A program made the position numbers and the translations under genes. A stretch of DNA of 272 nt from Escherichia coli (GTDB lineage Bacteria; Pseudomonadota; Gammaproteobacteria; Enterobacterales; Enterobacteriaceae). The stretch is from assembly GCF_003334355.1 (NCBI RefSeq), contig NZ_QOWP01000118.1; one strand, 5' to 3'. Position 1 is the first letter of the stretch. Every line of letters starts with the position of its first letter. This document shows positions 6 through 85 of this stretch, piece by piece. Under the pieces are notes generated by a model. It did no database searches. It had not been told where the DNA came from and saw only the letters and a list, made by a program, of their open reading frames with translations.

Positions 6-34
6 GCCTGATGCGCTACGCTTATCAGGCCTAC
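6..34 (+). repeat. REP palindromic unit, Z2-type (copy 1)
   Basis: GCCTGATGCGCTACGCTTATCAGGCCTAC. Stem 6-12 (gcctgat) pairs with 24-30 (atcaggc); inner stem gcg 13-15 pairs with cgc 19-21 around loop cta; CTAC tail at 31-34. Short PU lacking the 5-nt central insertion, which is the Z2 hallmark as I recall it. Confidence 0.85.
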
Positions 35-51
35 AGATTCTTGCGCCATTC
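35..51. other. Tail-to-tail inter-PU linker (17 bp, agattcttgcgccattc), between the CTAC tail of Z2 and the GTAG tail of Y; recurs at 128-144 and 221-237
   Basis: Conserved spacer between the two PU tails in all three units; the unit-2 copy carries two transitions (135, 142). Its size is consistent with the short linker motifs described for BIME-2, but I cannot assign the named motif (S, l or r) from memory with confidence. Confidence 0.6.
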
Positions 52-85
52 GTAGGCCGGATAAGGCGTTCACGCCGCATCCGGC
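52..85 (-). repeat. REP palindromic unit, Y-type (copy 1, consensus reads on minus strand)
   Basis: Reverse complement of 52-85 is GCCGGATGCGGCGTGAACGCCTTATCCGGCCTAC, the classic E. coli REP Y sequence. Outer stem 56-62 pairs with 79-85; inner stem ggcg 65-68 pairs with cgcc 73-76; loop ttca 69-72. Confidence 0.88.

Follow-up and report, generated by a model that had tools for sequence, protein, structure and literature searches.

Neighbouring Z2 and Y PUs of an Escherichia coli repeat array form a long imperfect inverted repeat, which we regard, with a probability of roughly 0.7, as a by-product of alternating homologous palindromes, the local PU hairpin being the structure that is maintained and used. 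On this view Y and Z2 have diverged from a single imperfect palindrome of ~30 nt and alternate in orientation, and because of this arrangement each PU is complementary both to itself and to each of its neighbours. By computation, inter-PU duplexes would be slightly to clearly more stable in naked single strands than a string of local hairpins; the comparative data presented here and published biochemistry point to the local bulged hairpin with its tail as the element that is maintained and recognised.

The repeat array and its locus

The window, by which we mean the entire stretch of 272 bases analysed, consists of three tandem 93-nt units with a mutual identity of 95-100%, in each of which a Z2 PU, a 17-nt linker, an inverted Y PU and a 13-nt linker follow one another. 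It is part of the known E. coli BIME-2 array in the yahG-yahI intergenic region. BIME-2 elements are described as inversely oriented y and z2 REPs with a short linker and flanking motifs, present in tandem and in strain-variable copy number (PMC3333891). The window contains both Y-type and Z2-type PUs, in tandem copies and in an extragenic position, and with its alternating Y/Z2 order, short head-to-head linker, tail-to-tail flanking motif and strain-variable number of copies we saw no difference from that class. Its Y (GTAGGCCGGATAAGGCGTTCACGCCGCATCCGGC) and Z2 (GTAGGCCTGATAAGCGTAGCGCATCAGGC in REP orientation) agree with the y/z2 description in PMC3333891 and are among the commonest of the 443 PUs collected below.

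All 5,426 complete E. coli genomes searched contain similar sequence, the median genome at 27 places, and the top matches lie in the yahG-yahI gap, where the annotation shows an ORF named yahH or a hypothetical protein. The number of units is 3.9 in K-12 J53 and 5.9 in strain H1827/12; the window is identical to the six-unit form of H1827/12 and 99.2% identical to the four-unit K-12 form. A duplication of units 2-3 turns the K-12 array into the longer one, whose units 3-5 correspond to the window. The operon fdrA-yahG-yahI-yahJ is encoded on the minus strand of the window. We also considered a protein-coding reading for yahH. The ORF lies wholly within the repeats and lengthens as units are added (297, 468 and 483 nt), and this points to a spurious prediction.

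On the plus strand the Rfam family naRNA4 (RF02564), whose consensus structure is two local hairpins, matches the window twice, at 55-124 with 78.0 bits and at 148-217 with 72.4 bits against a gathering score of 59.5; K-12 carries three such matches. Like naRNA4/REP325, the matching segments thus consist of a Y hairpin, a linker and a Z hairpin. REP325 differs in its locus (yjdM-yjdN), in a longer Z hairpin and in its linker, and the strand of the window that scores best is antisense to the yah operon. Rfam matches to mir-456, mir-2007 and isrO fell far under their gathering scores and were set aside as chance matches to hairpins.

Table 1. Repeat units, hairpins and stems in the window. Stems are given as pairing segments; empty cells, no entry.
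Feature	Position	Strand	Remarks
Three tandem 93-bp BIME-2 units	1-272		units 3-5 of the six-unit yahG-yahI array
Z2 PU, copy 1	6-34	- (REP orientation, 5' GTAG)	plus strand reads GCCTGATGCGCTACGCTTATCAGGCCTAC; commonest PU among 443 from other enterobacteria
Z2 copy 1, local hairpin	6-16/20-30		one G.T wobble and one mismatch
Tail-to-tail linker, 17 nt	35-51		AGATTCTTGCGCCATTC; loop of the tail-to-tail inter-PU hairpin
Y PU, copy 1	52-85	+	GTAGGCCGGATAAGGCGTTCACGCCGCATCCGGC in REP orientation, 5' GTAG tail; second commonest Y in the collected set
Y copy 1, local hairpin	56-62/79-85 plus 65-68/73-76		AA/GC bulge
Head-to-head linker, 13 nt	86-98		AATGGTGACAAAT; partial complementarity to 41-50
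Tail-to-tail inner stem	21-34 with 52-65 (span 21-65)		inverted repeat of the initial annotation
Full tail-to-tail inter-PU hairpin	5-86		outer stem 5-15/76-86 plus inner stem; from MFE structures
Head-to-head inner stem	76-91/93-108 (span 76-108)		pair probability 0.73-0.74
Full head-to-head inter-PU hairpin	52-127		outer stem 52-65/114-127 including GTAG/CTAC tails; pair probability 0.90-0.96
Z2 PU, copy 2	99-127	-	93-nt-period repeat family
Y PU, copy 2	145-178	+	93-nt-period repeat family; loop variant GTCCAC
Z2 PU, copy 3	192-220	-	93-nt-period repeat family
Y PU, copy 3	238-271	+	93-nt-period repeat family
naRNA4-matching units (Y hairpin, linker, Z2 hairpin)	55-124, 148-217	+	RF02564

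The initial annotation had proposed that Z2 and Y, which share their PU sequence in opposite orientation, thereby form an inverted repeat across the linker, and this part was borne out in its coordinates and its sequences. Positions 21-34 (CTTATCAGGCCTAC) and 52-65 (GTAGGCCGGATAAG) form 13 Watson-Crick pairs and one A27xG59 mismatch around the 17-nt linker at 35-51, and a 14-nt inverted repeat with at most one mismatch and a loop of 3-40 nt did not arise in any of 2000 dinucleotide-preserving shuffles of positions 1-108. A second repeat had been described between the PU heads at 79-85 (ATCCGGC) and 99-105 (GCCTGAT). It is present, with a C82xT102 mismatch and the linker 86-98 between its arms, but its 7 nt alone are at chance level: 26 pairs of 7-nt arms with at most one mismatch occur in positions 1-108 versus 5.7 per shuffle, which we judged not to be above chance. 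The head repeat extends, with 81% complementarity, to 16 nt (76-91/93-108), a value equalled by 17 of the 2000 shuffles. Moreover, the 5' arm of Z2 is complementary to the 3' arm of Y (5-15/76-86, 11 nt, one mismatch), so that all of Z2 is complementary to all of Y. Indeed, each PU is complementary to farther PUs as well, an extent that the earlier description had understated.

Competing folds in single strands and in duplex DNA

According to the initial annotation the array could fold either as a string of local hairpins or as longer inter-PU duplexes or cruciforms. For single strands this holds, at near-equal predicted energies. When the doublet 1-90 was folded as RNA, the long hairpin reached -37.8 kcal/mol on the plus strand and -38.4 kcal/mol on the minus strand, versus -36.7 and -37.0 kcal/mol for the local alternative, which comprises two local hairpins and a small tail stem. 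The long hairpin was the minimum-free-energy (MFE) structure for RNA of both strands and for single-stranded DNA of the minus strand, and it dominated the ssDNA ensemble on both strands; its pairs had probabilities of 0.79-0.93 versus 0.02-0.17 for those of the local hairpins, and the local-only ensemble had a probability of 0.015-0.025 for RNA and of 0.01-0.03 with DNA parameters. The long hairpin was likewise favoured for the head-to-head doublet 48-131, with an MFE difference of 4.7 kcal/mol. Structure prediction over the whole window, which had been suggested as a check, gave MFE structures dominated by inter-PU pairs (RNA of both strands, and ssDNA), the local-only ensemble being 21-23 kcal/mol worse for RNA and 11.5-14.4 kcal/mol worse for ssDNA. 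This preference kept its sign in four RNA parameter sets at 30, 37 and 42 C, with margins of 2.6-7.1 kcal/mol for the head-to-head doublet, 15-25 kcal/mol for the whole window and 0.1-2.4 kcal/mol for the tail-to-tail doublet, the last of which is within model error. On paper, the competition of inter-PU with local folds in naked single strands is thus predicted to be real.

The energy models put the single-strand equilibrium at inter-PU pairing and not at local hairpins, which runs counter to the explanation that we favour.

The outcome depended on the short tails of the PUs. For the segment 55-124, which has the size of naRNA4 and excludes the GTAG/CTAC tails, the MFE structure flipped to the two-hairpin fold and the local-only probability rose to 0.86; this tail dependence may explain why the structure of Qian et al. 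was "predicted by Mfold with modifications". A balance that inclusion of 4-nt tails can flip, and a tail-to-tail margin of so few kcal/mol, would suit a regulatory switch in which two folds of near-equal energy tune termination, mRNA decay or the binding of gyrase or HU in the manner of an attenuator, and REP325 does terminate transcripts in some contexts and stabilise them in others. We regard such a switch as highly improbable: covariation does not support the inter-PU pairs, neither a ligand nor a factor that shifts the balance is known, linker sequences vary freely among arrays, and gyrase works on duplex DNA, where it cuts inside Y PUs.

Direct paths between the two folds gave barriers of 10-15 kcal/mol, which are upper bounds. 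In a greedy co-transcriptional heuristic applied to the doublet, the mRNA-sense strand reached the inter-PU hairpin through steps of at most 5 kcal/mol, and local hairpins therefore have no kinetic guarantee; the plus strand kept the local fold up to barriers of 8-12 kcal/mol. The doublet-level run is still heuristic, though clearer to read than a run over the whole window: greedy folding of all 272 nt behaved erratically with the barrier threshold and was not trusted, and a purely local fold appeared in no run.

Conceivably, co-transcriptional folding, ribosomes and proteins trap each PU in the cell so that only local hairpins form and inter-PU pairs never become measurable. The retention of the local fold on the plus strand, the two-hairpin MFE structure of the tail-less naRNA4-size RNA and the restriction of covariation to local pairs (see below) are all consistent with this idea, as are Northern blots of REP325 constructs with species of 2, 3 or 4 hairpins, which imply that single PUs act as stops. 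We nevertheless find it unlikely in so strict a form, since the local ensemble of the whole window lies far above the full ensemble in every parameter set, inter-PU hairpins were attained by such small steps on the mRNA-sense strand, and the GTAG/CTAC tails could serve as toeholds for strand displacement. On the by-product reading, the mRNA of the yah operon, which corresponds to the minus strand of the window, and transient ssDNA would probably hold a mixture of local and inter-PU folds.

For duplex DNA, the part of the claim that concerned inter-PU cruciforms found no support in a rough estimate. We estimated extrusion as hairpin minus duplex energy plus the supercoil relief in a 10-kb domain, a rough model that excludes the junction term. 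In this model all net costs at sigma -0.06 were positive, at +2.2 kcal/mol for Z2 and +3.7 kcal/mol for Y extruded locally and at +23.7 and +15.2 kcal/mol for the full tail-to-tail and head-to-head inter-PU hairpins, respectively, and inter-PU extrusion was dearer than local extrusion at each superhelical density tried. The high inter-PU cost arises because the linkers and internal loops must melt. Local extrusion would hence be the cheaper route in duplex DNA, and inter-PU cruciforms are unlikely under this model.

Two functions had been named as reasons why the inter-PU fold might matter. The first was gyrase binding. Gyrase cleavage is enriched in BIME-2 elements and maps mostly inside y-type REPs (PMC6379681), which does not support a link to the inter-PU fold; the accessible part of the supplementary files of that Topo-Seq paper holds no yahG, yahH or yahI entry. 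The second, the blocking of 3' exonucleases, does not distinguish the two folds because both end at the same 3' PU nucleotide. Exonucleases entering from the 3' end would stop at the same PU boundaries whichever fold they met, which would make inter-PU pairing a tolerated conformer with no selected role.

Covariation in natural doublets and the Y/Z base pair

For comparison we ran a pattern scan over one genome per species, which returned 120 loci from Citrobacter (four species), Escherichia albertii, Pseudocitrobacter, Kosakonia, Superficieibacter and one contig labelled as a Bacteroidales MAG. These loci supplied 443 PUs, 191 tail-to-tail doublets and 78 head-to-head doublets. Across these natural doublets, from seven other enterobacterial genomes, the MFE structure was non-local in 87% of the tail-to-tail and in 100% of the head-to-head cases, with a median inter-PU advantage of 4.4 and 7.4 kcal/mol, respectively. 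The predicted preference for inter-PU folding is therefore general to the REP family examined, as far as these energy models go.

Covariation gave a different picture. We aligned 119 distinct Z-Y tail-to-tail doublets and scored them under each structure against 500 shuffles, a control that ignores relatedness among loci whose tandem copies are non-independent. Under the local structure 96.8% of cells were paired versus 94.3 +/- 0.2 in shuffles, two-sided changes were seen in 6 pairs and 49 cells versus 2.5 and 11.5, and the covariation score was 0.081 versus 0.041, none of these local-structure values being reached by any of the 500 shuffles. Under the inter-PU structure, for which the search pattern had fixed most of the inner-stem bases, the same 119 doublets gave no excess of pairing (89.8% paired, equal to the shuffles, 253 of 500 of which reach this value), 2 compensatory cells versus 1.5, and a covariation score of 0.021 versus 0.021. 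Double changes elsewhere in the basal stem were Watson-Crick in 11 of 11 cases, and the 10 doublets that carried such a variant all had the consensus base in the partner PU. Compensation was seen at 5 of the 56 local pairs that deviate in doublet PUs and at none of the 80 deviating inter-PU pairs (Fisher p = 0.011). As judged from these alignments, inter-PU complementarity appears to be fully accounted for by the conservation of each arm. The suggested relevance of inter-PU pairing to REP function thus finds no backing in the 119 natural doublets, where the inter-PU pairs do not covary beyond column composition and the local hairpins do. Absent covariation means absent selection; it is not proof that the inter-PU fold never forms.

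Two further candidates for compensation were examined and dropped. Pairing between the linkers (41-50/86-96), which would lengthen the Y hairpin, seemed to be preserved by the changes between unit types A and B (T49/A87 to C142/G180 and T42/A93 to C135/G186). These variants move as whole-unit haplotypes in tandem duplication, with K-12 unit 1 being a mismatched recombinant, and were therefore not taken as evidence of compensation; over 27 Y arrays and 23 Z arrays, the complementarity of naturally occurring linker pairs did not significantly exceed that of pairs formed across genomes (p about 0.1). A GCCATC variant common to both partner PUs lies in the bulge region and reflects a lineage-wide difference in consensus (Citrobacter, Kosakonia), not inter-PU covariation.

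The covariation data bear on the REPIN model, in which two inverted REPs act as one hairpin in ssDNA or mRNA and which has been applied to E. coli K-12 (PMC3116915, PMC3337134). Applied to the window, it would make the long Z2-Y hairpin in ssDNA the unit that is copied or moved by the REP transposase, so that inter-PU pairing would be under selection. The layout is indeed that of a REPIN (Bertels and Rainey 2011, PMC3116915), with inverted REPs (Z2 6-34, Y 52-85), a 17-nt spacer and a predicted long hairpin that is the MFE structure in ssDNA and RNA, and tandem REPIN clusters have been described. Furthermore, compensatory changes across the doublet were reported for Pseudomonas REPINs (PMC3116915), which counts against the by-product reading, and Ton-Hoang et al. 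name the BIME and not the single REP as the functional substrate (PMC3333891). Unlike the REPINs described, however, the doublet of the window joins REPs of different types, Y with Z2, with a fixed mismatch in each of its two stems. Its spacer lies outside the stem, to which it adds only 2 base pairs (G36-C51 and A37-T50), whereas REPIN spacers are described as part of the hairpin, and its partner REPs show neither covariation in the 119 doublets nor a co-change at any of the 80 deviating pairs.

The requirements of the transposase point in the same direction. REPINs go with a cognate RAYT, and that of E. coli, TnpAREP, is published; it binds single-stranded REP only with a 5' GTAG and a stem mismatch (PMC3333891), and in the crystal structure of the TnpAREP-REP complex the GTAG bases are splayed on the protein and the bulge is contacted base-specifically (PMC3479197). 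Inter-PU pairing puts GTAG opposite CTAC and the AA of the bulge opposite TT, in both cases as Watson-Crick pairs, and the inter-PU fold would thus bury the unpaired GTAG tail and the AA/GC bulge of the local hairpin and conceal the determinants on which TnpAREP depends. With these points on either side, we consider it distinctly unlikely that the long hairpin is the selected unit here. The subterminal palindromes of IS200/IS605-type elements (Y1/HUH), considered together with the TnpAREP-REP complex (PMC3479197), resemble the window in having a bulged hairpin, a 5' GTAG guide and an ssDNA substrate; REPs differ from them in being non-autonomous, in their high copy number and in forming inverted doublets, and the window contains no transposase gene.

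The single mismatch that had been read as an imperfection of the repeat turned out to be the base pair that discriminates Y from Z, paired within PUs and unpaired between them. Of the 119 doublets, all leave the corresponding inner-stem pair (window 27/59) unpaired, and 116 do so for the outer-stem pair (9/82). Within the 443 PUs, by comparison, this position is G-C in 214, T-A in 197, C-G in 6, a wobble in 12 and a mismatch in 14. A figure legend in PMC3333891 marks bases differing between REP types while complementarity is kept. Y was joined with Z in 74 of 74 typed head-to-head doublets, for which the search pattern left the partners unconstrained. When the doublet was made homotypic in silico (T9G+A27C or G59T+C82A), the local hairpins shifted by at most 1.5 kcal/mol and the inter-PU advantage rose from 1.1-4.7 to 12.0-15.6 kcal/mol. 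In these models, then, a single covarying Y/Z base pair costs each neighbour duplex about 11 kcal/mol, a cost that would leave both folds near parity.

It is tempting to go further and to suppose that the strict Y-Z alternation of BIMEs is an evolved anti-pairing device, in which G-C in Y and T-A in Z place a mismatch in both neighbour stems, leave the local hairpins intact and keep inverted PUs from forming long hairpins. We offer this idea tentatively and think it doubtful; the REP/BIME literature cited here contains no statement of it that we could find. If it were true, the device would avoid long hairpins in which the GTAG tail and the bulge are out of reach of the REP transposase, as well as long unstable palindromes.

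Implications for REP and BIME elements

REP/BIME elements account for a large part of the intergenic DNA of E. coli, and stem-loops between REPs were reportedly stated early on by Stern in 1984 and Newbury in 1987. The array, its architecture and the idea of a doublet hairpin are already known from the REPIN, TnpAREP and naRNA4 literature. For example, Qian et al. (2015, PMC4550694) proposed that REP325/naRNA4 condenses the nucleoid by way of HU and cruciforms. A 2026 preprint disputes that compaction role; it finds that REP325 acts locally, in termination and in mRNA stabilisation, and it folds the PUs one by one, as most recent work does. What we add is a quantitative comparison of the two folds, the finding of covariation for the local fold only, and the predicted Y/Z cost of about 11 kcal/mol.

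Standard folding of any strand with at least two tailed PUs (GTAG/CTAC) predicts inter-PU duplexes and not the textbook hairpins, and the comparative data back the hairpins only. This discrepancy concerns the modelling of REP-containing 3' UTRs, the design of REP stabiliser cassettes and the interpretation of TnpAREP, HU and gyrase substrates. The Y/Z position makes the question testable, as it offers a two-base mutant predicted to move the balance by about 11 kcal/mol. The same cost hints, speculatively, at a reason why Y is paired with Z in BIMEs.

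Array copy number and an annotated ORF

The yahG-yahI array, in which the window covers units 3-5 of the six carried by strain H1827/12, varies in unit number between strains. K-12 has four units (3001-3360 of L002, the K-12 J53 yah locus) as compared to the six of H1827/12 (1320-1865 of its locus, L123), where an exact second copy of units 2-3, a 186-bp block, accounts for the two additional units. Two matches to the window are 100%. The one in XL1-Blue (L001; NZ_CP081007.1, 4647818-4654089) lies in a stretch composed of truncated pseudogene fragments (IS2, RHS, ISAs1 and a DNA-packaging protein) interspersed with tRNA genes, and is apparently an artefact of assembly and not the native yah locus.

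The array has also been annotated as coding. An ORF called yahH or 'hypothetical protein' lies over its whole extent within the repeats, the window falls inside the equivalent ORF, and ORF size tracks repeat copy number in the three genomes listed below. The yahH-type ORF is apparently not a real gene but an erroneous prediction made on REP DNA.

Features located in and around the yahG-yahI array
Feature	Sequence	Coordinates	Strand	Length	Genome
ORF (yahH / 'hypothetical protein')	L002	3027-3323	minus	297 nt	K-12 J53
ORF (yahH / 'hypothetical protein')	L123	1346-1828		483 nt	H1827/12
ORF (yahH / 'hypothetical protein')	L001	2861-3328		468 nt	XL1-Blue
yahG stop codon TGA	L002	3373-3375	minus		K-12 J53
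Second linker-linker pairing	window	134-143 with 179-189			

Operon mRNA and strand

On the operon mRNA, the first palindromic unit (PU) of the array starts 13 nt past the yahG stop codon (L002 3359-3375). Liang, Rudd and Deutscher reportedly found in 2015 that REPs no more than about 15 nt from a stop codon can hold up ribosomes at termination and set off tmRNA tagging. Plus-strand matches to the naRNA4 model (gathering score 59.5 bits) at window positions 55-124 and 148-217 reach 78 and 72 bits, and the minus strand gives only 54 and 53 bits, under threshold. Because the yah operon transcribes the minus strand while naRNA4 passes on the plus strand, the naRNA4-like sense is antisense to the flanking genes.

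Linker-linker complementarity

The 3′ portion of the tail-to-tail linker (window 41-50) is complementary to the 5′ portion of the head-to-head linker (86-96), a pairing that would add about 10 bp to the Y hairpin. The two unit types differ by compensatory-looking changes (T49/A87 to C142/G180), and the G45·T91 wobble in this pairing can form on the plus strand only. Linker variants are inherited together as unit haplotypes, a pattern broken by unit 1 of K-12. Across other arrays, the linker-linker pairing effect was not significant.

Related doublets in other genomes

In Escherichia albertii (L014), Z2-Y doublets at 3885-3964 and 4047-4126 have 17-nt tail-to-tail linkers, AGATTCTTGCACCATTC and AGATCCTTGCGCCATTC, nearly identical to that of the window, and this array is probably orthologous to the window's. 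A Z2-Y doublet that matches the E. coli consensus without any difference was found on a 3.1-kb contig labelled 'MAG: Bacteroidales bacterium' (SFEK01000203.1; L061 236-319), which is probably enterobacterial and mis-binned as Bacteroidales. In Citrobacter (loci L004-L012 and L052-L060; Citrobacter youngae, L112-L122) and Kosakonia (L097-L111), Y and Z units usually read GCCATC as compared to GCATC, with an additional C in the 3′ half of the bulge. This is a lineage-wide change common to both PU types, and the units may have co-evolved in this respect with the REP transposase of the lineage.
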